From a virus (taxonomy: Duplodnaviria > Caudoviricetes): a stretch of DNA of 54,085 nt. The translations under genes and the position numbers were made by a program. This document shows, in pieces, positions 9,639 through 49,579 of the stretch (positions are counted from its first letter, which is position 1; every line of letters begins with the position of its first letter). The notes beneath the pieces were generated by a model. The model ran no database searches and was not told the DNA's origin. It saw only the letters and a program-made list of their open reading frames with translations. Location: IMG/VR virus record IMGVR_UViG_3300030330_004653, positions 1 through 54,085 of that record. The stretch is one strand, 5' to 3'.

Positions 9639-10082
9639 ATGAGCGAATCCATAAATCCCATAAATATGGATCAAAGGATCAATAAATCAGAGGAAAAGCG
9701 GCTAAAAACACCGGAAACATACCGCAACCACCTCAACCAGTACCGCAACCCTGACGGCACATTCACCAAGGGCAAGGCCGTAGGCAGGCCAAAGGGGGCC
9801 AGAAACAAGGTTACAGCCAGTCAGAAGATCTCTGAAGTCGAGCAGCGGATGGGTGTGACGCTCGACCCATTGGAGGGCATGGCACAGATAGCTGCTGACG
9901 AGACGAACGACATACAGGTCAGGCTGGCTGCGTTCAGGGAGATGGCGAAGTATCTGTATGCGCAGCGTAAAGCGGTGGACATGTCTATTGAGGAGACGAG
10001 AGGCGAAGCCAGCAGCCTGAGCGACAGCGACCTTGAGTCTATCATACAGGCAGACTTTGGGGGGAGTGAAGAGCAGGCTTAG
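9639..10082 (+). CDS. terS: Terminase small subunit (putative)
   Basis: G-T-F-x-KG...GRPKG-x-RNK motif; position upstream of terL. Confidence 0.7.
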   Translation: MSESINPINMDQRINKSEEKRLKTPETYRNHLNQYRNPDGTFTKGKAVGRPKGARNKVTASQKISEVEQRMGVTLDPLEGMAQIAADETNDIQVRLAAFREMAKYLYAQRKAVDMSIEETRGEASSLSDSDLESIIQADFGGSEEQA

Positions 10083-33400: not shown

Positions 33401-36400
33401 TCATCGCACATTAGGTGCGAGCATAGATCGCGCACGGGGAAAAGATCCTAAAGAAATTTTTGCTGGAAGCTCGACTCGACAAGGTAAATTAGACAAATCA
33501 GAAACGGGGATTAGTTATACCCCACTAACTACCGGAGAGGCAAGGTTTTTTTATACGCTTCGGAATGGTGAGCGGGTAGTCCTTGATCAGAGACGTAGAA
33601 ATCTTTTTGTAAAAAGAGACTTAGAAAAGTTAATTAATAAAGCAAAACGAGATAAGGGGATAGAATTTGATGGAGTCTCAGAGAAAAGATATGATGAATC
33701 AGGAAAGCAAGTTAGCTGGCTCCAATACCTCGGTGAAGCATATGAAGAACAGTTTGAGGAGGCCGTCCGCAAAAGAGCGGTCGAAGTTTTACCAGCGATT
33801 GAAGACGTTCCGTCCGATCCTGCCAGAAGCGGACGATATACAAGATTAGAGGAAGAAGCCGCTCCATTTGGCGAAGAGCAAGGACAGGATTTATTAGAGT
33901 CTGCAACGCAGGAATTGGCTGCTCAGGAAAAGCCAGTCGCTTCCGGTCAACAAATAGACTTTGACACAATTAATTATGGCCCCAGTTTTCCTCTTGCATC
34001 TGAGATGGCATCGCTGGACCGCCAATCCCTTGATCGTGTAACAGATCGCCTGTCTTCGTTTTACCCTGACTACACAGCCGTTACAGATCAGGGATCTTTT
34101 GACCAGCGAGCAACGGAGCTGGGCAGGAAGCCTGAGAAGATTGCAGGCTTTGTGGACCGAGAAACATCCACGGTCTTCATAAACCCATCGTTGGCAAAGT
34201 CTGACACGCCACTACATCAATTTTCTCACATATGGCTTGACCGTCTACAGACAGACAGCCCTGAACTATATGATCAGGCTACTGAGCTGGTCAGGAGAAG
34301 CCCTTACTACGAAAGGGCAAGTAAGGCAGGCTTTGGTGTGTTTGCCGAAGAGGAGGCACTGGCCCAGCTCATAGGAGAAAAGGGTGCGGGCTTTATCGAT
34401 GGGGGGCAGGCCACTCGCAAGGACAAGGGAATCATAAAGCGACTGATGGCTCAGATCGCCAAGATTGCCAAAAGATTCTTTAAGACATCTAAGGCTATTG
34501 ATGTTAATGAGATGACCTTAGAAGACTTTGTAGAGGGAGCAGTTGATGCAGTAACGCAAAACAGGCCCATGCAGACGAGGGCTGGCGTTCCCAGCAGAAA
34601 TACAGAATACCGACAAAAGAGAGCGGAGCTGGATCGAATTTCTTTTGGCGGGAATATGTTTTATGAGCCGATTGATGACGTTGCCAGAATAGCCGACGAG
34701 TATATGGAGTCGAAGGGGCTGGGAGAGCTAAGAGATCGCAGGATATTAAAAGTTCCTGCCGCTCAAGGGAAAGCTATTGCCGATGTCTATGATGCTATGG
34801 AGCATGATCCCCGTAACCCTGTTGTGTTGCAGGCATATCAAGACATGGCTAATGAAACCATGGAGCAGTTTGAAGCCATCTTGAAAGAGGGGTATGAAGT
34901 AGAGCTATTTAGTGAGGGGGTGGAACCATACAAGAGCAGCCGTGACATGATCGATGATGTGCGCGAGAATAAGCATATGTTTGTTTTTGCAACCGATCAG
35001 GAAAGCTCGTATGGCAAAGATGGCATTACACCTGAGCTGAGAGCTGAAAGCCCTCTGCTGGCAGATAGTGGATATAAGGACATTAATGGCAAGACGCTAT
35101 TGATCAATGATGTCTTTCGCTTTGTCCATGACTTCTTCGGTCATGCCAAGCGTGGCAATGGCTTTGGGCAGGATGGGGAAGAGAATGCATGGGAAGCGCA
35201 CAGTCAGATGTATACTGACAATGCGCGTAGAGCCATGACCTCAGAAACGCGAGGACAAAACTCATGGGTGAACTTCGGCCCACAGCTACGCCTGCCTAAT
35301 GGGAAGCTACCAACAAAGACGCATCCTGAATACAAGCCCATACCAGAAAGAGATTTTGCCGATCAGAAAAACAATCTCATGCCTGATGAGATTGTCTTCC
35401 CTGAACGATTTAAGCCCGATGTCTTACTGGAGGAAGCAACTCCCTTAGCGGAAGACGCAGATCCTTTAGGCGGGGATATCCCCGATCCAATGCAGAGACG
35501 GCTTGACGAGATATTTGCTGGTGTCGAGAAGCCTGCTCAAACGCCCCCACAGGAGGCTGCAGAGGATCAGGGTGACATTACCCCAGATCAGCCATTAGAG
35601 GCCGCTACAGAGGCTCCTGCGCCCCCTCAAGGCACAGAGGAGAGAGGCTTTGCCGAAACCTTAACAGAGCAAGGTCGAACCCCACCAGAAGGGGAGGGTC
35701 GGTTCTATCGTCCTCAGACTAATCTGGAGACCAGACGGCAAGCTGAAAATATATATATCAAAGACGGCATTGGAGGGGTAAGATCAGCGTTAGGGGACTC
35801 TGAGGGAGATCCTCCTTCTGCTCTTCGGACCGCGCTGGGGATCGTTGCTTATACCCACTACGAAAGTGAGGCCAAGGCTTTTCAAGAGCAGGGCGATACT
35901 CGTAGGGCAGAGGGAGCGCGTGAGGAAGCTATATCCATAGCCAACTTAGTATCGAAGAGGCTGACCAGCGCAGGGCAGGCAACGCAGGCTGCTTCTATGA
36001 TTTCTATGCTGGACCCTGACACTATTGGCTTATGGGCGCAGAGAAAAATAGACAGGATTAATGAGCGATACAATCTCAAGGGAAAGAAGAAACGAGAATT
36101 ACCTGAAGAGGATAAAGAGAAGCTCAAAGATCTGGCAGACAAAGGGCAGCAGTTAGTAGATCTCAACAAGTCTCAGCAAGAAGTAAACGAGGCAATGACA
36201 AAGGCTATTGAAAACGAGCCTTTGACTACTGAAGACATTGCAATCATCACTGAATACAGGGACAAAGCGACTGCGCTGTTGGTAGGCGAGCCAGTCCCTG
36301 AAGAAACAAAGGTAAAAAGGACTCCTAAAGATACTGTAAGGCGCATCCTAACTGCCAAGATTAAGAATCGCGCTGCCAATGCAAGACAGCGTCTACGGGA

Positions 36401-38858
36401 TATGAATATCCTGAGAGGTGGCTTGCCAGCAGATGTAATGGCAGACTTAGTCGTTGTGGGTCTGGATAAGATGGTAGATGGGGCCACTGACTTTAAGAAT
36501 TTTAGAGAGGCCATGCAGGCTGAACTACAGCAGGAGATTGACGAGAAAGATTTTCGCAAGCTCTTTGTCCAGACGCAGCGTGAGTTTGGGAGCGAAAAGA
36601 AGCAAGCTCGCGTAGATTTCAGACAGCTCAAAACAATAGATGACTTTTTGAGTTCAGTAGAAAATGATCCAGAGATGCAGCAGTATGAGCAGGTGACTGC
36701 CTTAGTCGATGCGATTAGTAAGATGTCCAACTTGACTGAACAGGCTCAGGTAAGTGTTGGTCAGCAGATCCAACAGGTCATAGATCGCATGGAGCCGAAA
36801 AGGCTGACGGGATACCTGACTGCTGTATTAAACACAGCCAGATTGCTCGCACCAAAAACTGCCCTAAGAAATATCATTGGCAACCAGCTCTTGTGGAATG
36901 CGGAACAATTAGCAACGGTTGTGGCCGCAGGCATCGACAGGGCAGGAAGTGCTGTTACCGGAAGCGATAGAGATATTGTGCTTACGGGACAGGCAAGTGA
37001 TGTGCTCCCAGTTGTGAAGTATTTGAAAGGGATTCCTGTCTACGGATTTAAAGGGTCCATGCAAAAGGTTGCACCAGAGCTTATAGAAGGTGCTCGGTCA
37101 GGATATGCAGGGGAGTCTCCTGCTGGCCTACCTACGCAGGCAGACCTGCCTTTGGGACTAACCTTTGATACCATGAGCGAAGACTTTAGGCGTTTGCAGA
37201 ATATTGAAACGCCTGTCGTAGGCACAGCTCTGCGAGGAACCTATAGAGTTGGGCGTGTACTGGAAGGATTGATGAGTGCTCAATTGAGAGGCTTTGACCT
37301 CGCAGCCTACATGAGGGCTTATAACACAGTCATGCGCGAGCAGGCAACGATTGCATTGACTAATCAGGATAGACAATTTGAGAGTGAACAGGAAAGAGAA
37401 GCGTGGATAAACAATTGGATATCCACAGCCGATGATAGCGTGCAAGGTGTCGCTGATCAGTATGGTCGATATGTGACCTTTCAAGACGATACGGATTTAG
37501 CCCAAGGAGCCATTCTTCTTAAACGCGCTCTTAATGGAGATTCTCGTCTTTTTAAAGGTAGGCTCAAGGCAAAGGACTCTCCAGACGAATCAAGATCTGT
37601 TCGCAGTATTATGCTTGGGGAGTTTGTAATTGCTTACCCAAGAGTTCCTGCGAACATTATAAACCGAGGACTTGCATACAGCCCATTTGGTGTTCTCAGA
37701 TCGATAAAACAATATCGTGATGCTGCAAAATTAGCAGAAGGTGGTCCTAAAAATTTGCGCGAAGCAAAAATGGCATTCAGCCGTGCATTAATAGGATCTG
37801 GGGTCACTGCATTGACTTATAAATTGGCCGAGTTGGGTTTAATGTCAGGCGAAGAGGAAGAGGAGCCACGCGCAAGAGATATAAAGCGTGATATTACAGG
37901 AGAAACAAAGTATCAAATAAATGTAACTGGCCTTGCTCGCTACTTGGATGGCTATTTCGATACGGGCGTTTTCTCTGACGCGCTGGCTACCGCACGGCAA
38001 GGTGACAAACTTATAACGTATGATTGGGCGCAGCCCTTAGCTATAAGCATGTCCTTTGGGGTAAATGCTTTTCAAGCCGTTGAACGTAAAGGGAGGAAGA
38101 GGAGGGTTAAGAGTATAGATGGAGCTTCTTTCATAGATGTTCCATTGGAAGGGTTGAGGGGTGGTATAAGGACCGTTGAAGAAATGCCAATGCTAACAGG
38201 CTTGAGAGACTTGATGGGCGTTAATTACGGCAGTAATAGCCTGACCGAAAATCTTATTGAGATAGCCTTAATAGCCCCATCTGGTTTTGTGCCGCAAGTA
38301 ATTAATCAGGTAAGGCAATTCACAGATAACACAAGAAGAGATGCGTATACAGGCAACGCTCTTCAAAGAGCTGTGAATAGGACATTCAACAGGTTGCCCT
38401 TTGTCTCTGAGTTGCTCAACGAAACATATAAGTCTATTGGCAAAGATATGCCCAGAGAAATATATACCGCTGGAACAAATAGCTTTTTTAATGTCTTTTT
38501 GAATCCAGCGTTTGTGACTGAGTATATGCCCGTTTTTAAGGATGATCCAGAATTAGGTGACCTTGCACTGATGATGCTGGAACCATATGAAGAAACTGGG
38601 ACTGTTAAATCTTTACCTCAAAGAGTTCCGAGAGTAATAAAAGTTGATGGTGTTCAGTATGAATTATCCTCAGATGATAAGACAAAGCTGCAAAACGTCA
38701 TGGCAAATACTATAACGTCTTTAGCCCAAGATCGTAAAAACGTGATAAAAAACGCCTCTCCAGAAGGTCAATTAAAAATCTTAGGAAAAATAATGGAGAT
38801 AGGGGGGGAGCAGATGCGAAACTACTTTAAGAAAAATATGATGAAGGAATACAAATAA
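27405..38858 (+). CDS. 3817-aa large polyvalent (probably injected) protein with JAB/RadC-like, HhH-glycosylase-like and zincin-like domains
   Basis: HNHPSG...S.AD; GMENKLISF...DVLVLDR; HQFSH; HDFFGH; G/A-rich segment near the N-terminus. Confidence 0.85.
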   Translation: MPLTPEEKERLLSRKRELELGVTQPSTGLTSEEKERLLKRKRELELGITQPPAGATPRQQRLANTFSAGMSPPTQPTPERTFGSVRGRTRARDTGQITRPVVSPPPLITEPPSPLDYFDKLSRSYDLSSQRMDLQSNVLDLTKLNLTDDEKVARANELVVQRDKIDQELSTMESDSYIGDIGIMAASIAPSIVETTKRSLYGAGSGAAIGGVTAGPVGALAGAKTGFVTGGLVYTANEGYGAAYLDAIKDGRSHEVAVATATGFAPVYAALSRLQIGNVLNSVLGKSLNKKVASDIMPSVYNKFVNKAEELGKRAGPVGTTAARITADTVVETFSEVAQDYANLSARELASRYEEGEGLSKQEWDRSIGDYMDMAVALSVITGTPTAAMAGIDRGVKVKNAKKLIKASNPEFLENDLGVDTSQKVGNQVRQVISMMEDGSLKQRIEASRSLGDEQGLGSTPQILTDDEVSSIRNKSIELAVKQGFEPDSPALQKRVESAIAAANISLDRYQEIDTFLTDALKELAVENPLWDDTRTSFVRAEREADFQADMLSTDGKPTGARVYVKTKPDGITEAIITDANNQALTPIVDKSYDEVVRQLQYYGDANVGSLIVNKDNIEIVGRDEQAVAQQVANRSKPDVRRIHQWRETEVQGPLQEGGAESEVQRTPETVEDAGPVFGEETSKAAFLTQQLQIVEGTNDVAAQRQIISGIQDLVAKGEISQRMYEAAIRKLPARFDDILFPELEAQRERDLQQRVRDREEREVSEQAEADRIARQQSAVGIPDETRQSNVRQAQEDRPVEGMENIIDPTGGMTLREDAEDFLLDELLDDSDPSPTQEEQPATPRVSDTVVQEPQVEPEPTPEVTEQEDARGRESVRTYDESDPSPPVSHVGTALPEVEQPIVSVRETEAATGRRASGQTSLIGKRVSDAKSLGLAFEPLRNTQSEWTYIVLRNGDTGEILSVDGHSFNLPAQSPSARDFAISRRGDARFREQLRDRVSRLRSRTGGANVIADVVHNHPSGNAMPSGADIELTREFAELFDPIDGVSFGEHTIVNTGEASSIQRDGTWSLYDIYDNQPLTDSGLTIADVDMLKDDPELNNRRAAARRRDPLLGLYSRTDVIDALFGGGAGDATSMDMLRGVSNAQIGQYLKHDQGKLALGVILDSKNNVRNAVPFDVNLLSNPEEFGRWSRNRRIENAGRRMVVYYGAHDEESQIGVDQFKELVAPSIESGDVFDAVYTSARERGIRGEVGLESTATLPDTAVDAPRISTADGTLLEPEAAPIEGAISELLEGDSGRIKRDLNFETLSEDAVKIAEEISDELQLINPDPAPTPEKFITGYRLMQAKPTSEAADDLFSLYVLNTTPVVQGEWVLAKSGPRMESGRVKATINKGKGLAWRGGWHSGSLPASTHIGGMGVQNAYYELYGITADNKKPSPVYRRAKENWVEVSIPDDVDWQSVADSRAVINEETGRPDPKTAHITDQVPYGGHYKYKTNPNMTGSWLISGSMKINRRLDRDEVVRLGEEGGMVDLPLLPDWIRENNVRFEHLTGEAQKELAQVYPDDLESIYGRANAEEIFRQLEQAKVDDPSTKKKTVTKLPQPRKPDKRPLRYPDTLQEEADPLPVFKENTTGSKKRGEFVPASRSKAKGGNVKAFEVGDRIRLEHPNPLTSESEFDAWLGKVVGIEKTTDQVTAPVQAIEWANDSDSIAEYVGGLLADDMRNLANEGLDYSRERAEMYANGEMTVYDTIHHYMWNILSTGTSPYEQEAAYLETLVPENLERLYDIFEKCIETKGEYIRPAKKGVKNRDINKFINQRLAIQHSGRPSAGSKNMFNSFFRYLGAITGPAEGADADGRSVIQYLHDMLSDPNLSGREIRRNFFNSLPRDKSVGMENKLISFMLLTSGKFDVLVLDRVQTRNLWGAQYPKNLVYSDGKEEIDVYDLVDSKLFHGPRGAVFYEALEDALAPSIKEGYSKIGRAEDGNVGTFHWESYSIAGDMAVPHRTLGASIDRARGKDPKEIFAGSSTRQGKLDKSETGISYTPLTTGEARFFYTLRNGERVVLDQRRRNLFVKRDLEKLINKAKRDKGIEFDGVSEKRYDESGKQVSWLQYLGEAYEEQFEEAVRKRAVEVLPAIEDVPSDPARSGRYTRLEEEAAPFGEEQGQDLLESATQELAAQEKPVASGQQIDFDTINYGPSFPLASEMASLDRQSLDRVTDRLSSFYPDYTAVTDQGSFDQRATELGRKPEKIAGFVDRETSTVFINPSLAKSDTPLHQFSHIWLDRLQTDSPELYDQATELVRRSPYYERASKAGFGVFAEEEALAQLIGEKGAGFIDGGQATRKDKGIIKRLMAQIAKIAKRFFKTSKAIDVNEMTLEDFVEGAVDAVTQNRPMQTRAGVPSRNTEYRQKRAELDRISFGGNMFYEPIDDVARIADEYMESKGLGELRDRRILKVPAAQGKAIADVYDAMEHDPRNPVVLQAYQDMANETMEQFEAILKEGYEVELFSEGVEPYKSSRDMIDDVRENKHMFVFATDQESSYGKDGITPELRAESPLLADSGYKDINGKTLLINDVFRFVHDFFGHAKRGNGFGQDGEENAWEAHSQMYTDNARRAMTSETRGQNSWVNFGPQLRLPNGKLPTKTHPEYKPIPERDFADQKNNLMPDEIVFPERFKPDVLLEEATPLAEDADPLGGDIPDPMQRRLDEIFAGVEKPAQTPPQEAAEDQGDITPDQPLEAATEAPAPPQGTEERGFAETLTEQGRTPPEGEGRFYRPQTNLETRRQAENIYIKDGIGGVRSALGDSEGDPPSALRTALGIVAYTHYESEAKAFQEQGDTRRAEGAREEAISIANLVSKRLTSAGQATQAASMISMLDPDTIGLWAQRKIDRINERYNLKGKKKRELPEEDKEKLKDLADKGQQLVDLNKSQQEVNEAMTKAIENEPLTTEDIAIITEYRDKATALLVGEPVPEETKVKRTPKDTVRRILTAKIKNRAANARQRLRDMNILRGGLPADVMADLVVVGLDKMVDGATDFKNFREAMQAELQQEIDEKDFRKLFVQTQREFGSEKKQARVDFRQLKTIDDFLSSVENDPEMQQYEQVTALVDAISKMSNLTEQAQVSVGQQIQQVIDRMEPKRLTGYLTAVLNTARLLAPKTALRNIIGNQLLWNAEQLATVVAAGIDRAGSAVTGSDRDIVLTGQASDVLPVVKYLKGIPVYGFKGSMQKVAPELIEGARSGYAGESPAGLPTQADLPLGLTFDTMSEDFRRLQNIETPVVGTALRGTYRVGRVLEGLMSAQLRGFDLAAYMRAYNTVMREQATIALTNQDRQFESEQEREAWINNWISTADDSVQGVADQYGRYVTFQDDTDLAQGAILLKRALNGDSRLFKGRLKAKDSPDESRSVRSIMLGEFVIAYPRVPANIINRGLAYSPFGVLRSIKQYRDAAKLAEGGPKNLREAKMAFSRALIGSGVTALTYKLAELGLMSGEEEEEPRARDIKRDITGETKYQINVTGLARYLDGYFDTGVFSDALATARQGDKLITYDWAQPLAISMSFGVNAFQAVERKGRKRRVKSIDGASFIDVPLEGLRGGIRTVEEMPMLTGLRDLMGVNYGSNSLTENLIEIALIAPSGFVPQVINQVRQFTDNTRRDAYTGNALQRAVNRTFNRLPFVSELLNETYKSIGKDMPREIYTAGTNSFFNVFLNPAFVTEYMPVFKDDPELGDLALMMLEPYEETGTVKSLPQRVPRVIKVDGVQYELSSDDKTKLQNVMANTITSLAQDRKNVIKNASPEGQLKILGKIMEIGGEQMRNYFKKNMMKEYK

Positions 38859-38980: not shown

Positions 38981-41812
38981 ATGGCAACAATATCAAGGGT
39001 TCATACGTTCTCAACGGGCGAGGTTTTAACCGCAGCCAACCTGAACGGGGAACTCAATCTAATCGTTTCTGCAATTAACGGGAATATAGATGCCGATAAT
39101 GTAGATACGTCTGCAATACCTACCCTTACAGCCACCCAAACACTTACCAATAAGACCCTAACCAGTCCTAAGATAGGCACGGCTGTCTTAGATACGGCTG
39201 GTGCAGAGCTGATAAAGCTGACTGCTACAGGCAGTGCAGTAAACGAGCTGACTATCGCTAACGCAGCAACTGGCAACTCTCCCACTATCAGTTCAACTGG
39301 GGATGATACAAACATCGACCTAACCCTTTCCGGTAAGGGAACGGGCAAAGTAATTGTGTCGGGAGATCTGCAAGTATCCGGTGACGATCTTTTTATGGGG
39401 ACCAACACATCCGGTCATGTCCTCATAGCAGATGGAACCAACTTCAATCCCACAGCTTTAAGCGGGGACGTAACCGTCAACTCTTCTGGGACCACGGCTA
39501 TTGAGTCGGGTGTCATTGTAGATGCAGATGTCAACGCTTCAGCCGCTATCGCACAGTCAAAGCTGGCTCTGGCAGTCACAACCAGTGAGATCGCAGCGGC
39601 CACTCTGGTAACAGAGTCTGAAGGGATCGGCAGCAATGATAACGACACAACCCTACCAACCAGTGCTGCTGTAAAAGATTATGTAGATACTCAGATTTTA
39701 ACTGAGGACACAATAGAAGAGTTAAATGACACTAATATTGTATTACCCCAATCTGGTCAGCTTTTAATTTATGACGGGTCTGATAGTTGGGATAATAAAA
39801 GTTTTGGTGGTGATGTTTTAATTGCTGCTGATGGAACAACGTCAATCAATTCTGACGTTATAGTAAATGCAGACATCAAAAGCGATGCTGCTATTGCTGA
39901 CAGCAAACTTGCTACAATATCTACATCGAACAAGGTTTCTGGATCTGCTGTTCAATTAGCCTCAACAACTGCTATAGAAGATTCTTCTGGCCTACAAATA
40001 AAAAGCGCAATTGCAGGGACTGGGTTAAGCCTTTCAAGCCAAGTCCTTTCTGTAGACGCTGCACAAACGCAGATAACTTCAGTCGGGACATTATCGTCTT
40101 TGACTGTTGGTGGCAATATAGTCAGTGATACAGACGGGACAGACGATTTAGGGTTGACTGGCACGCGCTGGAGATACGTCTACGCTGATGATATAGCAAT
40201 CACCAATGACTTAGCGGTGACAGAGGGCGGTACTGGTGCGTCAACTGCTTCGGCGGCGCGTACAAATTTGGGCGTTGCTATCGGATCGGATGTTCAGGCA
40301 TATGACGCAGGGTTGGCAGACATTGCAGGGCTTGCCACTTCAGATGGGAACATCATCGTTGGAAGTGGGAGTAACTGGGTAGCTGAATCGGGAGCAACTG
40401 CACGCACTTCATTAGGACTCGGTTCAATAGCAACACAAGCATCTGACAGTGTAAGCATAACGGGTGGTTCGGTTGCAGGCATAACAGATATAACCGTGGC
40501 CGATGGCGGCACTGGAGCGAGTAACGCATCAGGTGCAAGAACTAATTTAGGCGTAGCTATCGGATCAGACGTACAGGCATACGATGCAGGTTTAGCTGAC
40601 ATTGCCGCTCTCGCTACCACCGATGGTAATATTATTGTGGGCAGTGGTAGCAACTGGGTTGCAGAGTCGGGTGCAACAGCTCGCACATCGCTTGGCTTAG
40701 GCTCTATAGCAACGCAAGCAGCCGACAATGTAAGCATATCAGGCGGTTCACTTACGGGCATGACATCGTATAGCGGAGGAAGTTTTTCGGGCACTACGGG
40801 GACGTTCAGCGGTGATTTAGCAATCAATTCCGATACGTTATTCGTTGACGTTTCCGCAGACAAAGTTTCGATAAATGCAGGCACGACTCCTTCCAGTACG
40901 CTTCATATACAAAACACAGGAACGAGCGCATACGCTGTCGAGGTAGATGCGTCCGATGGTGGTAACCTTTGGGGCGTGTTTGAGGATAGCGGTGGCGCAG
41001 GTCAATCGTATTTACGCGATGCGAATGGCGATCCTAAAGTGGTTCTAAACTCAGTGGGTGATTCGTATTTCATAGGGGGTAATGTTGGCATAGGCACGGC
41101 ATCGCCTACAAGCCCTGCCAGATTGCATGTGCAAGGTGCGGATGGCGCAGTGGCATCATCTGACCATTCTGGTGACGCGCATGTAATTATTGAAAACGAT
41201 GGTCAGACATTTTTAGAAATGTCTACGGGAAATGACGATCTTGCAGGGCTAACATTTAGTGATCCAGATGCTGCAACAAAAGGCGGGTATTTATATAGCC
41301 ACACAAACGATTATTTACACTTACAAGCTGACGGTAGTATACGTGTTCGCATTGACAGCGATGGGTTGAAGTTTGGTACATCGACTGCCGCAGCGAATGC
41401 GCTGGATTCGTACGAAGAGGGTACGATAACGCCAACGTTAACCCCCTCGACAAGCGGATCAATAACAACGGGTAATAGTCGCGTTACGCTGCAATACACG
41501 AAAATTGGCAATGTGGTGCATATACAGGGGTTTCTGGAAGTGACTGCTGTCAGCAGCCCTGTCGGAAACATACAGGTGCCAACAGGGTTTACGCCTGCTG
41601 GCACACAAACAAGCAGTATAACTGGAGGGATATGTTTGGTTTCCAGTTCATCTAATTCTCTGAAAGTGAACCAATACACAATAACTGCCAATCCAGCAAA
41701 TACATATTTAACGATTGTCCCAACGGATGGTGGGGTATTCGCTGGAGACGCTGCACAGAGCATTGGCAGTACGGCTGATATCTATATCAACATCACTTAT
41801 ATAGTAGCATAG
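38981..41812 (+). CDS. Tail fibre / receptor-binding protein
   Basis: QTLTNKTLTSP, GGTGAS...ARTNLG, GNVGIGT.SP and LDSYEEGT.TP...YTKIGNVV motifs. Confidence 0.9.
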   Translation: MATISRVHTFSTGEVLTAANLNGELNLIVSAINGNIDADNVDTSAIPTLTATQTLTNKTLTSPKIGTAVLDTAGAELIKLTATGSAVNELTIANAATGNSPTISSTGDDTNIDLTLSGKGTGKVIVSGDLQVSGDDLFMGTNTSGHVLIADGTNFNPTALSGDVTVNSSGTTAIESGVIVDADVNASAAIAQSKLALAVTTSEIAAATLVTESEGIGSNDNDTTLPTSAAVKDYVDTQILTEDTIEELNDTNIVLPQSGQLLIYDGSDSWDNKSFGGDVLIAADGTTSINSDVIVNADIKSDAAIADSKLATISTSNKVSGSAVQLASTTAIEDSSGLQIKSAIAGTGLSLSSQVLSVDAAQTQITSVGTLSSLTVGGNIVSDTDGTDDLGLTGTRWRYVYADDIAITNDLAVTEGGTGASTASAARTNLGVAIGSDVQAYDAGLADIAGLATSDGNIIVGSGSNWVAESGATARTSLGLGSIATQASDSVSITGGSVAGITDITVADGGTGASNASGARTNLGVAIGSDVQAYDAGLADIAALATTDGNIIVGSGSNWVAESGATARTSLGLGSIATQAADNVSISGGSLTGMTSYSGGSFSGTTGTFSGDLAINSDTLFVDVSADKVSINAGTTPSSTLHIQNTGTSAYAVEVDASDGGNLWGVFEDSGGAGQSYLRDANGDPKVVLNSVGDSYFIGGNVGIGTASPTSPARLHVQGADGAVASSDHSGDAHVIIENDGQTFLEMSTGNDDLAGLTFSDPDAATKGGYLYSHTNDYLHLQADGSIRVRIDSDGLKFGTSTAAANALDSYEEGTITPTLTPSTSGSITTGNSRVTLQYTKIGNVVHIQGFLEVTAVSSPVGNIQVPTGFTPAGTQTSSITGGICLVSSSSNSLKVNQYTITANPANTYLTIVPTDGGVFAGDAAQSIGSTADIYINITYIVA

Positions 41813-41823
41813 GAGACTGACAA

Positions 41824-42078
41824 ATGGCACTGAGCGAACGCACAGAACAAGATAAAATAGAAATCGTGGGACAGCATAGAATCATACAGGTCAGAACGGC
41901 CACTGTTGTAGAGCGCGATGGTGTGGAGCTAACTCGCGCATTTAGCCGCAAAGCATTTGCGCCAAATGCAGACGTTTCTGAAGAAAGCGCAGAAGTGCGC
42001 GGCATAGCTGACGTAGTATGGACACAGGAAATCAAAGATGCGTATGCGGCACACATCGCATCACAGCAAATAGGATAA
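41824..42078 (+). CDS. Tail-fibre-associated small protein (possible chaperone)
   Basis: DKIE.V....IQVR......DG.E.R...VWT pattern, usually found after this type of fibre. Confidence 0.75.
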   Translation: MALSERTEQDKIEIVGQHRIIQVRTATVVERDGVELTRAFSRKAFAPNADVSEESAEVRGIADVVWTQEIKDAYAAHIASQQIG

Positions 42079-42216
42079 TAAGCCATGGCTTATACGCACG
42101 TACTAACTATAAGCAAAGAGCGAAAAGCACCTTGGGCCGCTTAATGCGCGCAATTCAGCGCATTGGGATGGCGTATCTCAACGCAATGATGGACGCATAT
42201 AAAAGGGATTGAGGAA

Positions 42217-42888: not shown

Positions 42889-43041
42889 ATGATTGATATA
42901 AAGAATGTATTGAAACGTAAAGCAGCAAAACAAATAGCAATAATAATTATTGTTGCGGTCCTATCGGCTATTGGTTTTTCAACAGACCTTGCGAGGGATG
43001 TAGCAGAAGAGACAGTTGAAATTATCGAAGAAACTAAATGA
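42889..43041 (+). CDS. 50-aa single-pass membrane protein (MIDIKNVLKRKAAKQIAIIII...)
   Basis: Translated by hand; GAGGG RBS; ATGA overlap with the next gene. Confidence 0.6.
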   Translation: MIDIKNVLKRKAAKQIAIIIIVAVLSAIGFSTDLARDVAEETVEIIEETK

Positions 43042-43913
43042 AGCCATTTATAAAGCGATTAAGTGAGCAGTGTGTCTCTTACGAATACGATGGCCTGTCG
43101 AATAGGGAATACTCCATTTTATTCCAGTCCGACCAACACTTCGACAGCGTGGACTGCAATAGGGATCTGCTCAATAAACACTTAACGCAAGTAAAAGACA
43201 TGGGATCGACCTGCTTTATGTTGGGTGATCTCTTTGATGGGATGGGAACGCAGGGCGATAAGAGAGGGAGCAAGTCAACCTTAAGACCGGAGCTAAAGCA
43301 GGCAAGCTACTTGAATGCGTTGGTTGATGAGGCAGTCAAACTCCTTACGCCCTATGCCAATAACATAGCAGCTATAGCAAGAGGCAACCATGAAGAGTCC
43401 CTCTTAAAATACACTGAGTTTGATGTGCTCTCTGCAACCATCCAACGTCTTAATACGGAGACGGGAAGCAGTATAATACCCATGGGCTATACAGGTTGGA
43501 TATTCCTTCGCCCCATGAGGAAGCGTCATACCAAAGGGAGCATGCAACCCGTAAAGACTATCAAGATTGCTTACACACATGGGCATACTGGAGGGGTCGT
43601 TACGAGAGGTGTGTTGGGAGTCAACAGAAAGAGCTTAGTATACCCAGATGCAAATATAATTATCTCCGGTCACTTACATGAAAGCTGGCAAATGGAGATA
43701 TGCAGAAACCGAATCACAAAGAGTGGGAATGTGGAAATTGATAGTCAGTTGCACTGCCAGCTCCCGACATATAAACAGAATCCTGAAGATGGCAGAGGGT
43801 GGGAGCACATGAAGGGTTTTGCACCTCGCCCTCTGGGAGGATACTGGATCGACCTTTCGTATGTGATGAGTGCCAAGCACGACATTGAATACAATTTAAG
43901 GAGGGCATCTTAG
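43038..43913 (+). CDS. Calcineurin-like metallophosphoesterase
   Basis: Motifs SDQH, GDLFD, GNHE, THGH and GHLH. Confidence 0.9.
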   Translation: MKPFIKRLSEQCVSYEYDGLSNREYSILFQSDQHFDSVDCNRDLLNKHLTQVKDMGSTCFMLGDLFDGMGTQGDKRGSKSTLRPELKQASYLNALVDEAVKLLTPYANNIAAIARGNHEESLLKYTEFDVLSATIQRLNTETGSSIIPMGYTGWIFLRPMRKRHTKGSMQPVKTIKIAYTHGHTGGVVTRGVLGVNRKSLVYPDANIIISGHLHESWQMEICRNRITKSGNVEIDSQLHCQLPTYKQNPEDGRGWEHMKGFAPRPLGGYWIDLSYVMSAKHDIEYNLRRAS

Positions 43914-44038
43914 GAGAAAGGTGCGTGTGGGGGGGGGGATTTATTTATTTTTGAATAAACCCCAGATGTTTTGATATTGATTTACCAGTCTCGTCAATCT
44001 TAAATTATTTTTACAATTTCAAAAAGGAGGGAGGAAAA

Positions 44039-44224
44039 ATGATGGATGCACAAATCTCGGATCGGCTAAATGAGTTGACCGAGCGAAGGGATCAGCTTGC
44101 GGCAGGGGTGCAAAAAGGGCTGACAGAATTAGAGCAGTTGAATGGAGCGATAGCGGTCTTGGGAGAGTTTGTCAACCAAGAAGATGAGGGAAAAACACTT
44201 CAAGATGATAAGATAGGGGAATAG
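44039..44224 (+). CDS. Small coiled-coil protein
   Basis: Strong GGAGG RBS. Confidence 0.7.
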   Translation: MMDAQISDRLNELTERRDQLAAGVQKGLTELEQLNGAIAVLGEFVNQEDEGKTLQDDKIGE

Positions 44225-44228
44225 ATCT

Positions 44229-44555
44229 GTGATAGGAGACAACCATAGCGGTGAAGATCGTGAATTGTGTCGGCTATATATTCCTGAAGATATATTAGAG
44301 CAAGGTTCCAATATGAAAAGCTCTTTGGCATTTTTCAGTCATCAAATGACTAAAGTGGTCGATATGCTTGAATATGCAGCCAGAGGGTGCGAGCCTATTG
44401 AAGAAGAAGATCCTGTTGAAATGATAAAAGAATGTAGAAGTAGAGCTTTGGATATGTGGGCTTTCAGCAATATCATCCTAAGTGGATCTACTTCGGACAG
44501 CGATATGATGCGGTGGTTTATAGATCAGAAGAAAGAGCTGAAAGAGCAGACATAG
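44229..44555 (+). CDS. Hypothetical protein
   Basis: ORF ending at the convergent hairpin. Confidence 0.65.
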   Translation: MIGDNHSGEDRELCRLYIPEDILEQGSNMKSSLAFFSHQMTKVVDMLEYAARGCEPIEEEDPVEMIKECRSRALDMWAFSNIILSGSTSDSDMMRWFIDQKKELKEQT

Positions 44556-44597
44556 ATAACCCCCCCCCAACTCTGGGTGGAGTTGGGGGGGGGTTAT
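44556..44597. terminator. Hairpin between the convergent late block and the integrase
   Basis: ATAAC(C)nAACTC-TGGGTG-GAGTT(G)nTTAT inverted repeat. Confidence 0.7.
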
Positions 44598-44600
44598 GTT

Positions 44601-45794
44601 TTAATCGATTATTGACGGGAGTCCATCTACGACTCCCTTTTTTTGTTTATTGGTAGCCTTGGCATACCTAAGTGTCATGGTCGGTGTCTTATGACCGAGG
44701 ATCTGTTGGGTGGCTCCAACGCTGCCCCCATTGTCCTGCGCCCATGTAGCAAACGTATGCCTGAAGAGGTGAGGATGAAGATGTGGCAGCTCAACATCCT
44801 CATCGGACCCTTTTTCTTGTACGTATTTTATTATTCCACTGGTCAGCTTGGCTTCAAATTTAAATAGAAAATCTTTCTTCAATTGCTCCAGACCTTCTCC
44901 ATTTTCAGATAAGACTTTTTCCTTATTGATTTTACAGCTAACCCATGCACATCGTTCGACTCTGCGTAGGTGATGCCGAAGGAAGTTTCTGTCTTTTGTT
45001 TCAATAAAATTTTCTGAAGTCTTTTTAAAAGTTTTTAATGTGCTAAGAACATCAGAAGACATGGGTATGTATTCACCTTCTCCTCCTTTACGCTCTTTGA
45101 CAAGAACTTTTTGCTCAGAAACTTTTATGTTTGACCACTTTAAATTGCAGACCTCTCCAATCCTCATCCCAGTATTTACCATTAGGACTATTACGTGCTT
45201 CACTTTGGGATTTATCAATCGATAAATCGTTTTGACTTGATCCTCGGTTAGGTATTCTGGGACCTTGGGGTTTTCCTTGACCTGCTTAATCCCATCACAC
45301 GGCTTATTCCTAAGATACCCCCAATCAACTGCACACCCAAAAACTACAGACATTGTTGATAGGTATCTGTTATAGGTGGATTTTGTTTTCCCTTCCTTGA
45401 TTAGATTGCTTAGATATTTTTCGCAATCATCCCTCGTTATCTCATCAAGATATTTTTCGCCCCACTCTAATGTGATCCTTGATAGTAGGGGCCATTGCCC
45501 CTTCTTCGTGTCCTTTTTCCAGCGTATATATCGTTGGGGGAATACGGCATCGTCAGCCATTACAAAATCAAACCACTTGATTCTGGGTCCAGATTTTCCA
45601 AAGGGGTTTATGCCACGATCAAGAGACTTCTCAACAGCCATAGCTTTGCGTATAGCTTGAGATTTACTATCAGTCCCTGTGCTATACTCATGTCGCTTCC
45701 CGTTATATCGAAAACGGACATACCATTTCTTTGATGTTGAAATTTTTCGGAGCGTTATATTGCCAATCTCTAAATAATCAAGAGTAGTCGCCAA
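44601..45794 (-). CDS. int: Tyrosine integrase
   Basis: N-terminal arm-binding WYVRF..NGKR..YSTGT; TGMRIGE, HLFRH and LGH...T.RY; probable TTG start at 45794 after a CCAC leader and AGGGAG. Confidence 0.93.
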   Translation of the reverse strand: MATTLDYLEIGNITLRKISTSKKWYVRFRYNGKRHEYSTGTDSKSQAIRKAMAVEKSLDRGINPFGKSGPRIKWFDFVMADDAVFPQRYIRWKKDTKKGQWPLLSRITLEWGEKYLDEITRDDCEKYLSNLIKEGKTKSTYNRYLSTMSVVFGCAVDWGYLRNKPCDGIKQVKENPKVPEYLTEDQVKTIYRLINPKVKHVIVLMVNTGMRIGEVCNLKWSNIKVSEQKVLVKERKGGEGEYIPMSSDVLSTLKTFKKTSENFIETKDRNFLRHHLRRVERCAWVSCKINKEKVLSENGEGLEQLKKDFLFKFEAKLTSGIIKYVQEKGSDEDVELPHLHPHLFRHTFATWAQDNGGSVGATQQILGHKTPTMTLRYAKATNKQKKGVVDGLPSIID

Positions 45795-45958
45795 TGCAAT
45801 TCTCCCTGTTTTGTGGTGTGTGGTGATGGTGTTTAACTCCCCCCCGAAATTACCACTTTCCACACGCGACATACAAGTGAACAAGTGTTCACATGTGCAT
45901 TTTTATAAGGGATTTATTGCTTTTTTTAAATGGTTTTATTGCTGTAGAGGCAATTTCA

Positions 45959-46000
45959 CTGATTACAAATCAGGTGCTCTACCAGTTGAGCTAAAGCGGC
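45959..46000 (-). tRNA. 5' half of tRNA-Thr(UGU) (not an intact gene as oriented)
   Basis: GCCGCTTTAGCTCAACTGGTAGAGCACCTGATTTGTAATCAG, then non-tRNA sequence. Confidence 0.9.
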
Positions 46001-46123
46001 TAAATAATACGATGATGCTTCTATGGTAGGTTTGCGTGATGGGGGGAGTGGGCTAAAATGAGGTTCGATTTTTACGACTCCCCCCAATACTCCCCCCGTT
46101 TTGTTTTTCAAATCACCCATTAA

Positions 46124-46178
46124 ATAAAAAAAACTCCCCCCAATCACGCAACTTTTATTGCGTATGATTGGGGGGAGT
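46124..46178 (-). terminator. Terminator ending the minus-strand replication module, inside the candidate invertible segment
   Basis: ACTCCCCCCAATCA...TGATTGGGGGGAGT stem followed on the minus strand by a T-run. Confidence 0.7.
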
Positions 46179-46218
46179 AATCAGGAGGTTACGGGTTCGA
46201 TTCCCGTAGGCGGCTCCA
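46177..46218 (+). tRNA. 3' half of tRNA-Thr ending in CCA (not an intact gene as oriented)
   Basis: GTAATCAGGAGGTTACGGGTTCGATTCCCGTAGGCGGCTCCA; T-arm present; AGGCGGC pairs with GCCGCTT of the 5' half. Confidence 0.9.
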
Positions 46219-46221
46219 CAT

Positions 46222-46608
46222 TCACTTCATTACGTCACCATCAAACACTTCTGCTACTTTAGCAATCTTATCATCCACGCCCTTCCCTCGCTGTGCCATC
46301 GCTTTTTCTAACGCCTTAGCCACCGTTTCCATGCGAGTGGCTCGCTGTCTGAGGTGGGCGATGGTATTGGGCATCTCCGTCCAATGGGGGTCATAGTAGT
46401 AGCCTCCTGACCCTGACCCTATTGGCTCGCCCTGCTCGCGCAGGTAGGATACAGCGGCTCTGACAGTCACACCGGAGATCCCTAACGCCTGTTCGATGTC
46501 CTTGCTCTTTTTTGGTTGGTCCTTGTTGTATCTCTTCAATCCGCGCAGGATTGTAGGCGCGTGCTCTCGCACGGCTGGTGGTTGCTGGTCCTCAAAGTTG
46601 GTAAGCAT
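46222..46608 (-). CDS. Winged-HTH DNA-binding protein
   Basis: SKDIEQALGISGVTVRAAVSYLREQGEPIGS..GYY. Confidence 0.8.
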   Translation of the reverse strand: MLTNFEDQQPPAVREHAPTILRGLKRYNKDQPKKSKDIEQALGISGVTVRAAVSYLREQGEPIGSGSGGYYYDPHWTEMPNTIAHLRQRATRMETVAKALEKAMAQRGKGVDDKIAKVAEVFDGDVMK

Positions 46609-46631
46609 TGGTCCTCTTATGGTGGTGGTGG

Positions 46632-46814
46632 TTACTTCTTTTTCTTTTTCTTAGTAGCTCCCTGAGCAGCTCGCGCATTATCAATCAGATTAGGGTAGCT
46701 CCGTCCAGCAGCGGCTGCTTTTTGCCGTGCGCTCTTTTTTTGAGAAGGCGTTAGGGTCTTTGACTTCTTTTTTGGATTCGATTTTTCCCAGAATTTCTTT
46801 TCTTTTTTTTTCAT
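46632..46814 (-). CDS. Small Lys-rich protein
   Basis: LTPSQK..AR..A...GR.YPNLIDN; ATG at 46814 after GGAGGG. Confidence 0.7.
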   Translation of the reverse strand: MKKKEKKFWEKSNPKKKSKTLTPSQKKSARQKAAAAGRSYPNLIDNARAAQGATKKKKKK

Positions 46815-46913
46815 CTCGCCCTCCAACTAAAGTTGTGTGGGGAGGAAGGTAGGGAATCCCCTACACAAAAATATTTTTTTCGTGTACACCTACCTGCCCT
46901 CCCCACGTTATGA

Positions 46914-47002
46914 TGTGTCTATGCAAGCATTCGCGCTCGTATTTTATTACGGCTCCCCTTCCGCAATAAAAACTGAGGTCTCTCCTCAGATCGCATGACA
47001 CA
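46914..47002 (-). ncRNA. Candidate four-helix (cloverleaf) RNA element
   Basis: Closing stem plus CTGAGG/CCTCAG, TTTTATTGCGG/CCGTAATAAAA and AGCG/TGCT. Confidence 0.4.
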
Positions 47003-47398
47003 TCAATCTCGTTTATCCCACCTTGCTTTTTCTCGCCCTATATAGTCCCTGCAATCAAGGTGGAGGAAGGTGTTGTATTGCCCTATACCCCCAAATCCAA
47101 CCTCTTCTGCGAGGTCATAGAGTGATTGCAACGCTCCTCGCAAGTCGGGATGTGGCCCTGATGTGATGGGCGTGATATCTGTCGCAAAAAGCAGATGCAT
47201 GGATCTCTCTACGCCTCCCACTAACTGGTTGTGCTCAGGGCTGCGATAGCCGCTATTTATTTTCAGGGGCGCGTCCCATAGGACCCGTAGCTGCTCCAAT
47301 AGCCCTACGTGCCGCAGGGTTAAATCAGATACAATGAGATGCTTTGCTGTTGGGCAATAAAACTCCCGCCATTTAAAGTGATTTGATGCGTTTTCCAT
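47003..47398 (-). CDS. Peptidase M15A-family zinc peptidase (endolysin candidate)
   Basis: HF...EF.C, SGYR...HN..VGG...S.H...A.DI and G.Y..FLHLD.R. Confidence 0.88.
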   Translation of the reverse strand: MENASNHFKWREFYCPTAKHLIVSDLTLRHVGLLEQLRVLWDAPLKINSGYRSPEHNQLVGGVERSMHLLFATDITPITSGPHPDLRGALQSLYDLAEEVGFGGIGQYNTFLHLDCRDYIGREKARWDKRD

Positions 47399-47648
47399 CT
47401 TCTTCCTCTCTGATTTGTTGTAGCATTCGGGGATATACGTCTTGGTCTAAGCGCAGCGTCCGATGCCATACTGTATCACTCAACACAAAATCAGCGTGTG
47501 TCTGTAGGCTGTGATGACCTGTAGCATACGCTCTGCGATACTCATGCAGAGCTGAGTAGATCACTTCTGAGGCCAGCCTGCGATACGGCTCATCTGGATC
47601 TCCTGAGATATACTGGAAGCCCTTTCCTCCGATGCTTTTTTTGCTCAT
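47373..47648 (-). CDS. Hypothetical protein
   Basis: Coupled to the primase-helicase stop codon. Confidence 0.7.
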   Translation of the reverse strand: MSKKSIGGKGFQYISGDPDEPYRRLASEVIYSALHEYRRAYATGHHSLQTHADFVLSDTVWHRTLRLDQDVYPRMLQQIREEEDGKRIKSL

Positions 47649-49579
47649 TCTCCATCCTCCAATCCGTCAAACATCTCCTGTATGTGCTGCCCTACGGAGT
47701 CCTGCGTGGGGGCAGGAACAGGGGCTGCGGGATAGGGCTTTGGGGTATAGAGTGATCCGCTCCCCAGATTGATAGGGTCCAGCGAGTCGGTGCAGATTTG
47801 AAATGTTGGACCGTCCCACGGATAAAGGGCGTAGTCCCCAGCAGCATGGGTCATGCCCTTGCGGGACTTGAGCACCTGCACTGCCATCGTCCGGTCAAGC
47901 GAGCTGCGCTCAGGACGATGGATGCCGAGCACTAAGTCTGCGCCTTCCTCTATCACACCTGAATCGCGCCCCGAGGACAGGCTGATAGGCACATCGCCAT
48001 CCTCGCCATGACCTCGTCCTATCTGGGACAGGACCATCACCAGCGTCTCAGTGCGCTTCGCTACATTTTTGAGCGATGCTGCTATCTCAGAGACAGCTTG
48101 ATAACTGCTGACCGAGCTGCCCTTGTTGCTCGACTTAATAAGTCCGAGGTAGTCAATGCATATCGCATCGACTTTGCCATGTCGGTCTGCTGTTTTCTGG
48201 ATGGTCTCTTCGATCTGGGACATGGACATCGCAGACTGTGTGCAGATGTGATAGCGGTCCCACCACGGGATATCCGCTATGGCCTTTCTAACGGCATTGT
48301 AGTCGCCTTCGATAGCCGAGGCAGGTATACCCAGCTCTATCGCTATCTGACGCTCCATGACCCGTGCCAGCGTCATTTCAAGCGAGAAGAAGAGCACACG
48401 GTGTCCTGCTGCGGTCATGTGCCTAAGCATATTAAGCGCGAGGGCTGTCTTACCGGAGCCTGTCTTGCCCAGCATGACACATACCTCGCCTGCCCGTAGC
48501 TCCCGATGCTGTTTGTCAATTTCGGGGAATCCAGAGGGCAAGCTGGCAGACGGGTTGCGGAGCGTATCGTGATACTCGTTGACAGCCTCCAGTCCAGTGT
48601 GGACTACGATGCCCTCATCCTCGTCCAGTGCAGCGTCCCCGCCATAGGCCGAGCGAACCTTGGCCTGTAAGACTTCCGGTCCATCGGTCTCGGTTAGGGG
48701 GGTGTCGAGCTTGCTATCCCACAGGCGCAGGATGTTGAGAGCTTTCCACGCTGGGACCCCGTAGTCACGCAGCTCTCTCGCTTCCCAATAAAATGCATTA
48801 TCCCGCCCTGCGCCTTCGGTCAGGTCTGTCTGATATCCCCGCTGCGGATCGCCCTGTGCGGCCTTAGATGGGGCTGTAGGGGCGATGCTCTGCTGGACAT
48901 CTAACCACACTGCCTCAAGCGCATCAACGCTCTTGGCTGCACTGGGAGGCAGGATGGTTGTGTCCTGCTGTGTTGTTGCCCGCTGCAATATTTCTTCGAC
49001 TGTAATCCCACAGAAATCTTCTGTGGGGATATGTGTCTTGAAGTAACCAGAAACGTCATGCTTTGTCCCTCCCGCACGCAGCAGACGTTTCTGGTCGTAG
49101 ATCGCATAGTCTATGTCGTGTCCATGCGCGATGCGCTTTGCCAATTCGCGGAGTCGTGTGTGCAGCTTGGCAGATTCTCGCCACCCGCCAAACAATCCCG
49201 CAGGCAGCATGACATGGTACCCCTTTTTACCGGAAAACCATACTACAATATGCTCTGGAGGCGTTCCAAAACCATCAATCAGCTCACCCACAAACTGCTG
49301 AGTGCTCTTTGTGGCCTCGTCGATGTTGGTATTGTCAATATCAAACGCCAAATAGGGTGCATACGATGCGCCCTGATACCCACGGACCGTGCCATGGGTC
49401 GCTACGTGATCAGCAAAGTCCTGCCCAAATACATGTATAGATTTATAAGCTGGCGTGCCTCGCTCCCTGCACTCTGCTATCTTGACCGCAGCCTCTGCTA
49501 CGGGTAGGACCGTGCCTCGGTTGCGTATATCATTCAGCGCAACCTCGCAATATTTCTTATGTGGTGTGGTGGTGGTCAT
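47645..49579 (-). CDS. AEP-type primase-polymerase fused to a DnaB-like (SF4) helicase
   Basis: FDID and FSGKKGYH (AEP); GRDN (PriCT-like); GKTGSGKT, FSLEM, IDYLGL, LSQ, IEEGAD and KSR.G. Confidence 0.92.
   Translation of the reverse strand: MTTTTPHKKYCEVALNDIRNRGTVLPVAEAAVKIAECRERGTPAYKSIHVFGQDFADHVATHGTVRGYQGASYAPYLAFDIDNTNIDEATKSTQQFVGELIDGFGTPPEHIVVWFSGKKGYHVMLPAGLFGGWRESAKLHTRLRELAKRIAHGHDIDYAIYDQKRLLRAGGTKHDVSGYFKTHIPTEDFCGITVEEILQRATTQQDTTILPPSAAKSVDALEAVWLDVQQSIAPTAPSKAAQGDPQRGYQTDLTEGAGRDNAFYWEARELRDYGVPAWKALNILRLWDSKLDTPLTETDGPEVLQAKVRSAYGGDAALDEDEGIVVHTGLEAVNEYHDTLRNPSASLPSGFPEIDKQHRELRAGEVCVMLGKTGSGKTALALNMLRHMTAAGHRVLFFSLEMTLARVMERQIAIELGIPASAIEGDYNAVRKAIADIPWWDRYHICTQSAMSMSQIEETIQKTADRHGKVDAICIDYLGLIKSSNKGSSVSSYQAVSEIAASLKNVAKRTETLVMVLSQIGRGHGEDGDVPISLSSGRDSGVIEEGADLVLGIHRPERSSLDRTMAVQVLKSRKGMTHAAGDYALYPWDGPTFQICTDSLDPINLGSGSLYTPKPYPAAPVPAPTQDSVGQHIQEMFDGLEDGE

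Follow-up and report, generated by a model that had tools for sequence, protein, structure and literature searches.

The DNA analysed here, called the window, is a stretch of 54,085 bases which comprises a whole IMG/VR record, classified as linear and 100% complete. Genes typical of tailed phages, coding for the large terminase, the portal, the major head and tail-fibre proteins, are located on the plus strand at about 9-44.5 kb, while the minus-strand genes at 0.5-8.4 kb and 46.2-54 kb code for helicases, a primase-helicase, RusA and an endolysin. The att region described in this paper is located where the late (plus-strand) and the early (minus-strand) operons converge. Two Logan contigs, from the runs X1 and X2, continue for about 40.7 and 12.4 kb, respectively, past the window's right end, and both end near 42177 in record coordinates. 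The X1 contig fits a circular map with a single break at about 40.7-42.2 kb, its start being placed at about 40689 by arithmetic. The record thus probably represents a free, non-integrated genome that is circular or permuted, the att region being flanked by phage genes on both sides. The ends of the Logan contigs also suggest that the stretch at about 40689-42177, at the end of a 943-codon tail-fibre gene, is strain-variable or repeated. In the structural module, two very large open reading frames were identified on the plus strand, one of 1449 codons (21816-26165) and one of 3817 codons (27405-38858), the latter alone making up one fifth of the genome.

The att region and the genes on either side of it contain the following features, where L003 is a tRNA-Thr(UGU) locus of a candidate host and L013 a contig of a diverged relative of the phage:

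44601-45794, minus strand: gene for a tyrosine integrase (int), 397 amino acids from a TTG start at 45794 (Pfam Phage_integrase, 1.4e-26; PHROG 1, 8.3e-62)
45836-45844, plus strand: lone copy of ACTCCCCCC, 42 bases upstream of the TTG start of int, a candidate for an arm-type site or an operator
45897-45958: int-proximal arm (L), A/T-rich and conserved, with two tandem 22-mers (direct repeat D4), abutting the left core
45966 to 45959, minus strand: left core GTAATCAG, an attL-type junction of tRNA 5' part, core and int-proximal arm
46000 to 45959, minus strand: tRNA-Thr(UGU) positions 1-42 (5' half), assigned from the sequence, 42/42 identical to L003 and L013
46001-46176: central segment M, 176 bp, with five copies of ACTCCCCCC/GGGGGGAGT at 46041, 46077, 46089, 46133 and 46170
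46040-46108, plus strand: hairpin of GGGGGGAGT/ACTCCCCCC followed by GTTTTGTTTTT (repeats I9 and I14; z = -4.64 in the fold of 45990-46230)
46123-46178, minus strand: hairpin with perfect 14-bp arms and an inner stem, followed by eight U (repeat I1; fold z = -4.73)
46177-46184, plus strand: right core GTAATCAG, an attR-type junction or the identity block of a conventional 3'-type attP
46177-46218, plus strand: tRNA-Thr(UGU) positions 35-76 with CCA (3' half), the identity block continuing to 46223
46222-46608, minus strand: gene for a 128-amino-acid HTH protein, the last gene of the early operon (Pfam HTH_11, 1.8e-4, below the cut-off; PHROG 2113, unknown function)

A first-pass annotation had described the two halves of a tRNA-Thr(UGU) on opposite strands with an inverted pair of cores, and its coordinates and strands were borne out from the sequence. 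The core GTAATCAG corresponds to tRNA positions 35-42 and is common to both halves as an exact 8-bp overlap, the last eight bases of the 5' half being the first eight of the 3' half, and its two copies form an inverted pair with 210 bp between them. An overlap of 8 bp is the length expected of the crossover region of tyrosine recombinases. Short inverted repeats are present around a short segment beside a recombinase gene, and the distance between int and the left core is 165 bp. The left core joins tRNA positions 1-34 to the int-proximal arm, and the right core joins the 176-bp segment M to tRNA positions 43-76 and the five bases after them. Read in the orientation of the tRNA, the left site runs from the reversed segment M through tRNA 1-34, the core and the int-proximal arm to int, and the right site runs from M through the core and tRNA 43-76 to the end of the HTH gene. 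The two cores are an attL-type and an attR-type junction, inverted relative to each other.

In the native window, ARAGORN identified no tRNA gene. After in silico inversion of 45967-46176, one tRNA-Thr(tgt) was identified by the same program at 46143-46218, matching L003 at 76/76 positions; the earlier statement that one inversion rebuilds the tRNA thereby held. The 5' half scored 27.2 bits with the Rfam tRNA model, below the gathering score of 29 and with a true fit in the 5' part only, and the Rfam search returned nothing beyond this sub-threshold tRNA and terminator look-alikes. More decayed tRNA pieces were sought in the flanks and none were identified, the match GGTTCGATT at 46062 being at chance level (p 0.087). 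Small open reading frames of 63 and 72 codons which run through the halves were taken as chance frames, since they cross tRNA sequence and the stems of terminators. No sigma-70-like promoter was identified upstream of the 5' half in a simple scan of 45400-46700. The heptamer AATCAGG is present as a 7-bp direct repeat in both halves (45968-45974 and 46179-46185), since the anticodon stem-loop is nearly palindromic; because of this direct as well as inverted sharing, a repeat finder can report the pair of halves in either orientation.

The pair of 8-mers alone is within chance, with 2 matches in the window compared to 1.56 expected and 41/100 shuffles reaching 2, so that the significance rests on the two 42-base tRNA pieces. 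As a chance control, every inverted 7-mer pair 40-800 bp apart was inverted and scored for a junction-spanning tRNA. In the window this was obtained for 1 of 2192 pairs, namely for the split tRNA. In 45 other loci (239,107 bases), 5 of 9780 pairs were positive; these were the true relative L013, artefacts of native tRNAs (two in L005 and one in L008) and one false positive in L023. The latter was considered as a second split tRNA and rejected, being located inside a 409-codon open reading frame of a GC-rich contig.

The exact 3' half was identified in only 4 stretches among 185,579 species genomes. Three of these belong to metagenome-assembled genomes (MAGs) of Gemmatimonadota, and the fourth, L003, is part of the same set of 168 genomes of this phylum. 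The joined halves show 0/76 differences to the tRNA-Thr(UGU) of L003 and 1/76 to those of L004, L005 and L006, in each case at position 32. Positions 46177-46223 are identical at 47/47 positions to G001 and L003. The identity to L003 extends for 5 bases past CCA and for 0 bases upstream of position 1, and no identity upstream of tRNA position 1 was identified to any of the four host loci. In line with the earlier suggestion that a search with the tRNA sequence would predict the host, marine Gemmatimonadota are predicted to be the hosts of this uncultured phage lineage.

In each of the four candidate host MAGs, tRNA-Thr(UGU) is encoded by a single locus. This implies that an integrating phage must restore or replace the tRNA, and that the target is probably essential. 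Extra copies of the tRNA halves were not identified in the four tRNA-carrying host genomes. The proposed inspection of attL and attR in related prophages yielded no lysogen in the 168 genomes of the host phylum, among which the MAGs are incomplete and the best integrase shares 38% identity, and for segment M no match beyond the chance level of about 20 nt was obtained in the same genomes. About 35-60 bases upstream of tRNA-Thr, the loci L003-L006 share a promoter-like sequence consisting of CTTGC(T/C)C, a spacing of about 17 bases and TTATATT, a motif which a simple sigma-70 scan would not fully score. The phage sequence upstream of the 5' half showed no significant similarity to the host tRNA-Thr promoter regions by local alignment (p 0.125-0.625), and the 8-mer GCAAACCT is common to the phage upstream region and to L004 and L005 only.

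For the integrase, a catalytic domain was identified with both Pfam and PHROG. The predicted fold comprises three domains, with an N-terminal four-strand beta-sheet and a helix at residues 7-59, and one of the best fold matches was full-length lambda Int (1z1b), aligned over 412 columns. A weak match to Arm-DNA-bind_3 covers the same residues 7-59. On the basis of the N-terminal sheet, the fold match and the Arm-DNA-bind_3 match, the protein is taken to be a lambda-like integrase, predicted to bind arm sites as well as core sites. The open frame of int runs on for 30 more codons to a TTG at 45884. However, 45795-45884 shows little conservation in L013, and in the relatives the protein begins at the point corresponding to 45794 (P0001-P0003 with 397-398 amino acids, and the L013 open reading frame with 397), so that the longer frame is probably untranslated. 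The integrase family is thinly sampled: among 30 matches, three proteins share 85-94% identity, five full-length proteins (P0004-P0008) and the partial P0009 share 40-45%, and the rest share 30% or less. A search of IMG/VR with an alignment of the integrase family returned 27 loci only, with 22-35% identity, and trial inversion of these loci gave no junction-spanning tRNA except for the false positive in L023. No relatives were identified in IMG/VR by means of the integrase, the HTH protein, the 3' half or a 25-mer of the right junction. Among cultured phages, close relatives were identified neither by DNA nor by protein, where the search gave 22 records only, with 23-26% identity. The stop codon of the HTH gene adjoins the tRNA's 3' end, and the HTH protein is a candidate regulator or directionality factor.

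The 9-mer ACTCCCCCC occurs in 8 copies in the window, compared to 0.27 expected, and 6 of the 8 are clustered within 343 bp (45836-46178), including a tandem pair. The lone copy at 45836 is kept in L013 amid diverged DNA. For the right core all six clustered 9-mers are located on one side, while the left core has 9-mers on both sides. Five of the six form the stems of two hairpins. The plus-strand hairpin with its T-rich run looks like a terminator for rightward transcription, and the minus-strand hairpin is, as predicted from its stem and U run, the intrinsic terminator of the leftward early operon. In the stem of the latter, L013 has a single change, T46144C, with which the minus-strand RNA still pairs, as G-U. 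The clustered 9-mers may therefore serve RNA structure rather than being arm-type sites, or both. The other two copies of ACTCCCCCC, at 9304-9312 on the plus strand and 10059-10067 on the minus strand, are inverted, about 750 bp apart and located just upstream of the large terminase gene.

A comparison to L013 gave the following identities:

45560-45794: int 5' coding sequence, 212/235, with 17/23 differences at third codon positions
45795-45937: non-coding sequence just upstream of int, 109/142 (77%)
45938-46248: att region, 302/311 (97%)
45959-46000: 5' half, 42/42
46001-46176: central segment M, 169/176
46177-46223: 3' half plus five bases, 46/47
46224-46608: HTH gene, 352/385, with 32/33 differences at one codon position

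In the coding flanks, identity is about 91% and most of the differences affect third codon positions; the conservation of the att region has a P of about 1.4e-5 against the coding rate. No difference is present over 45939-46032, and the int-proximal arm shows 3 differences over 45900-45958. The sole change in the 3' half, A46191G, affects tRNA position 49 in the T-stem, where the bases still pair as G-U; pairing is retained in the tRNA sense but not in the antisense. The contrast between att region and genes was also seen in the relatives represented by X5, for which at most 1 of 18 differences lies inside 46123-46248, and by X3, for which a contig shows 0 differences over 45964-46048. This X3 contig, of 215 bases and low depth, is identical to the 5' half and 48 bases of M and goes on with unlike sequence right after the first 9-mer, and its source may be a relative with a different central segment. 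Judged by these substitution patterns, both tRNA halves are under strong purifying selection. Since they are far more conserved than the neighbouring non-coding DNA, the halves are not a decaying scar, and the suggestion of the first-pass annotation that the arrangement might be a frozen recombination product loses ground as far as a pure relic is meant. A recent transfer of this 350-bp piece could mimic the conservation, but would have to involve three lineages.

An error of assembly, or a rearrangement that happened once and in one sample only, might be considered because the window is metagenome-derived and the tRNA sequence recurs across organisms, with a depth of 234-2042 over the 5' half. 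However, a k-mer assembler is not misled by an 8-bp repeat. Both junctions are crossed, with 0 differences over 43000-49000, by the Logan contigs X1 and X2 (52,598 and 24,347 bases) from two runs, which may be the source samples of the window, although the assembler differs. A metagenome scan with a 20-mer present in either orientation returned two contigs from other records, namely L012, which is near-identical to the window, and L013, which is about 91% identical in the genes and has the same gene order; both are split. The selection on the att region also speaks against an artefact, which has practically no probability left: the layout is not a misassembly, and the local misassembly that had been named as a refuting possibility is contradicted by X1, X2, L012 and L013. 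An X5 contig spanning 46123-46534 covers the right junction only, again in the split state. The split orientation alone was found in all assemblies (the window, L012, L013, X1 and X2). No strand-changing joint was reported in the contigs of four runs, contigs being known to drop rare variants, and with all 22 available runs present as contigs only, a minority orientation could go unseen; the runs X3 and X5 contain parts of relatives only, so that coverage gaps in them carry no meaning. It is likewise very improbable that the halves are transcribed apart and assembled in trans as a split tRNA of the archaeal kind, with no DNA rearrangement. The RNA downstream of the 5' half and that upstream of the 3' half can pair at -14.6 kcal/mol compared to -8.2 +/- 2.4 for shuffles (fraction reaching this value 0.017), but this pairing is driven by a 9-bp A/U-rich match located 16-17 nt from the ends of the halves, one arm is changed in L013 (A45938T), and the best L013 duplex is in a different register. 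Trans-pairing of the half transcripts was rejected on account of this weak, distant and altered match. In addition, no promoters were detected, and the 3' half is antisense and placed inside the 3'-terminal part of the early operon, whose terminator follows downstream. A splicing endonuclease of the kind needed for a trans-split tRNA is not known from bacteria and their phages.

Phage att sites in tRNA genes are normally described with a single part of the tRNA, in nearly all cases the 3' one. In the strongest rival explanation, the phage has only such a conventional 3'-type attP, in which the right core with its 47-bp block is functional and host 5' part and phage 3' part restore the tRNA upon integration; the 5' half would then be the fossil of one past integrase inversion, kept as a control region of int or as an architectural arm. 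The locus resembles a conventional attP in its adjacent tyrosine integrase, in the 47-bp host-identical block from the anticodon loop to past CCA, matched by G001 at 47/47 positions, in the 9-mer cluster beside the core and in its position between convergent operons. Such a control role of the 5' half is conceivable in that the perfect block 45939-46032 is located directly upstream of int on the int-coding strand, where promoter or activator sites could sit. The missing promoter of the 5' half and the split state as the only one seen point in the same direction, and a 3'-half block reaching a few bases past CCA is the norm in tRNA-targeting phages, as described in PMC10865867. On the other hand, all 42 positions of the 5' half match the host and L013, including the acceptor and D arms far from the core, in a neighbourhood of non-coding DNA which is only 77% identical. 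The locus further differs from a conventional attP by the second core with the 5' half, located 210 bp away on the other strand towards int, and by repeats of which nearly all are located to one side of the right core. The sole 9-mer outside M is on the int side and none is present beyond the tRNA 3' end, so that the right core by itself has repeats on one arm only. With these points weighed, a purely conventional attP is considered rather unlikely.

The reading preferred here, to which we assign a probability of roughly 0.6, is that a temperate tailed phage with marine Gemmatimonadota as its hosts has its att region here, and that both cores in it are live integrase substrates, whose recombination would re-join each tRNA half to a complementary one. 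The arrangement could have originated by an integrase crossover within the core between a short-core attP, consisting of M, core and int-proximal arm, and a complete tRNA-Thr gene located 176 bp away on the opposite strand. An attL-type and an attR-type junction are the reciprocal products expected of such a crossover, which makes this the simplest single event. The ancestral layout would then have been of the type known from tRNA-dependent lysogeny, with a short common core and a complementing phage tRNA. Since the halves are held to the host sequence and the one substitution respects tRNA pairing, each half probably still joins a working tRNA gene at some time, which would require recombination at its core.

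Two routes are conceivable when both cores are live, and inversion in cis is placed slightly ahead of a pure dual attP. In the cis route (a), a flip of the 210 bp would produce an intact phage tRNA-Thr together with a two-armed short-core attP; the integrase with a directionality factor would carry out the flip, the integrase alone would reverse it, and the split form would be the resting state. This would need just the two reactions of every temperate phage integrase. It counts against this route that the flipped state, if formed at induction, should be the packaged form. In the trans route (b), either core would recombine with the host tRNA-Thr gene and an intact tRNA would be restored each way, the right core acting as a conventional 3'-type attP and the left core as a rare 5'-type. 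This route fits the split form being the sole form seen, but by analogy to lambda, where attB does not recombine with sites of the attL or the attR type, a point would count against it. It counts against two live cores in general that no flipped form, no lysogen and no promoter of the 5' half were found, and that the 9-mers may be stems of terminators and not sites of protein binding. The switch proposed in the first-pass annotation is weakened by the split orientation in all contigs, yet not refuted, since contigs cannot exclude a minority form. Of its alternative of a switch or a dual attP, the structural basis stood, with the halves, the core and the adjacent tyrosine integrase, and both functions are candidates. 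Possible, though tentative, is the more specific idea that the flip creates an intact tRNA-Thr and at the same time unmasks a short-core attP, and would thus make tRNA-dependent lysogeny work through a DNA switch.

The fim switch of E. coli is a small invertible DNA switch run by tyrosine recombinases. The att region is similar to it in having short inverted repeats, of 8 bp here, around a segment of a few hundred bp beside a recombinase gene, with a gene start carried on the segment. It is different in the predicted lambda-like arm-binding domain of the enzyme, in repeats which are the crossover core of a host tRNA, and in the single orientation seen. Inversions made by integrases have been described in which HK022 Int recombined attP with a secondary site, or pTN3 Int recombined inverted tRNA sites (PMC5495485). 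These cases share with the present one a tyrosine integrase acting on two inverted sites of one molecule, with sites in tRNA genes. They were, however, sporadic or based on laboratory substrates, whereas here the product is fixed, spans 210 bp inside the att region and is conserved between diverged phages.

In tRNA-dependent lysogeny, as described by Guerrero-Bustamante and Hatfull, a short common core is combined with a complementing phage tRNA (PMC10865867). If flipped, the present att region would resemble these Fionnbharth-type mycobacteriophages, in which about 8-10 bp are shared between attP and host tRNA and an intact phage tRNA of the same isotype is present. Unlike in those phages, the tRNA observed here is split and no tRNA was identified by ARAGORN; it is also identical to that of the host and adjoins attP, so that the integrase would have the phage tRNA, too, as a target. 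Inversion goes unmentioned in that paper. An attP which shares only about 10 bp with attB is not what is present here, as the cores carry identity blocks of 42 and 47 bp; a short-core attP would arise in the flipped state only.

Integration at the 5'-distal part of tRNA genes is rare, with the cases of Zhao and Williams 2002 and archaeal examples being cited in PMC6563490. The left site, composed of tRNA 1-42, core, arm and int, has the form which these 5'-distal elements need. Those elements are described as carrying the 5' part only, whereas this phage also carries the 3' part. In the full-text literature searched, an att region of a phage in which both halves of a tRNA are inverted was not described.

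A natural and selected att region with both parts of a tRNA inverted around a shared arm segment is an unusual layout, and the compact pair of integrase and site is a candidate tool for inversion or integration. If both cores are active, the 210-bp inversion would represent a new way for a phage to control a tRNA gene together with its capacity for integration; alternatively, the phage would possess an attP which inserts in either orientation with the target still repaired. In the case of the DNA switch, there would be a physical link between the ability to integrate into the single tRNA-Thr(UGU) gene of the host, and so to disrupt it, and the provision of a substitute tRNA. Each of the two outcomes would have consequences for the definition of att sites in prophage-finding software, and for the directionality of integrases, the origin of phage tRNA genes and tRNA-dependent lysogeny.
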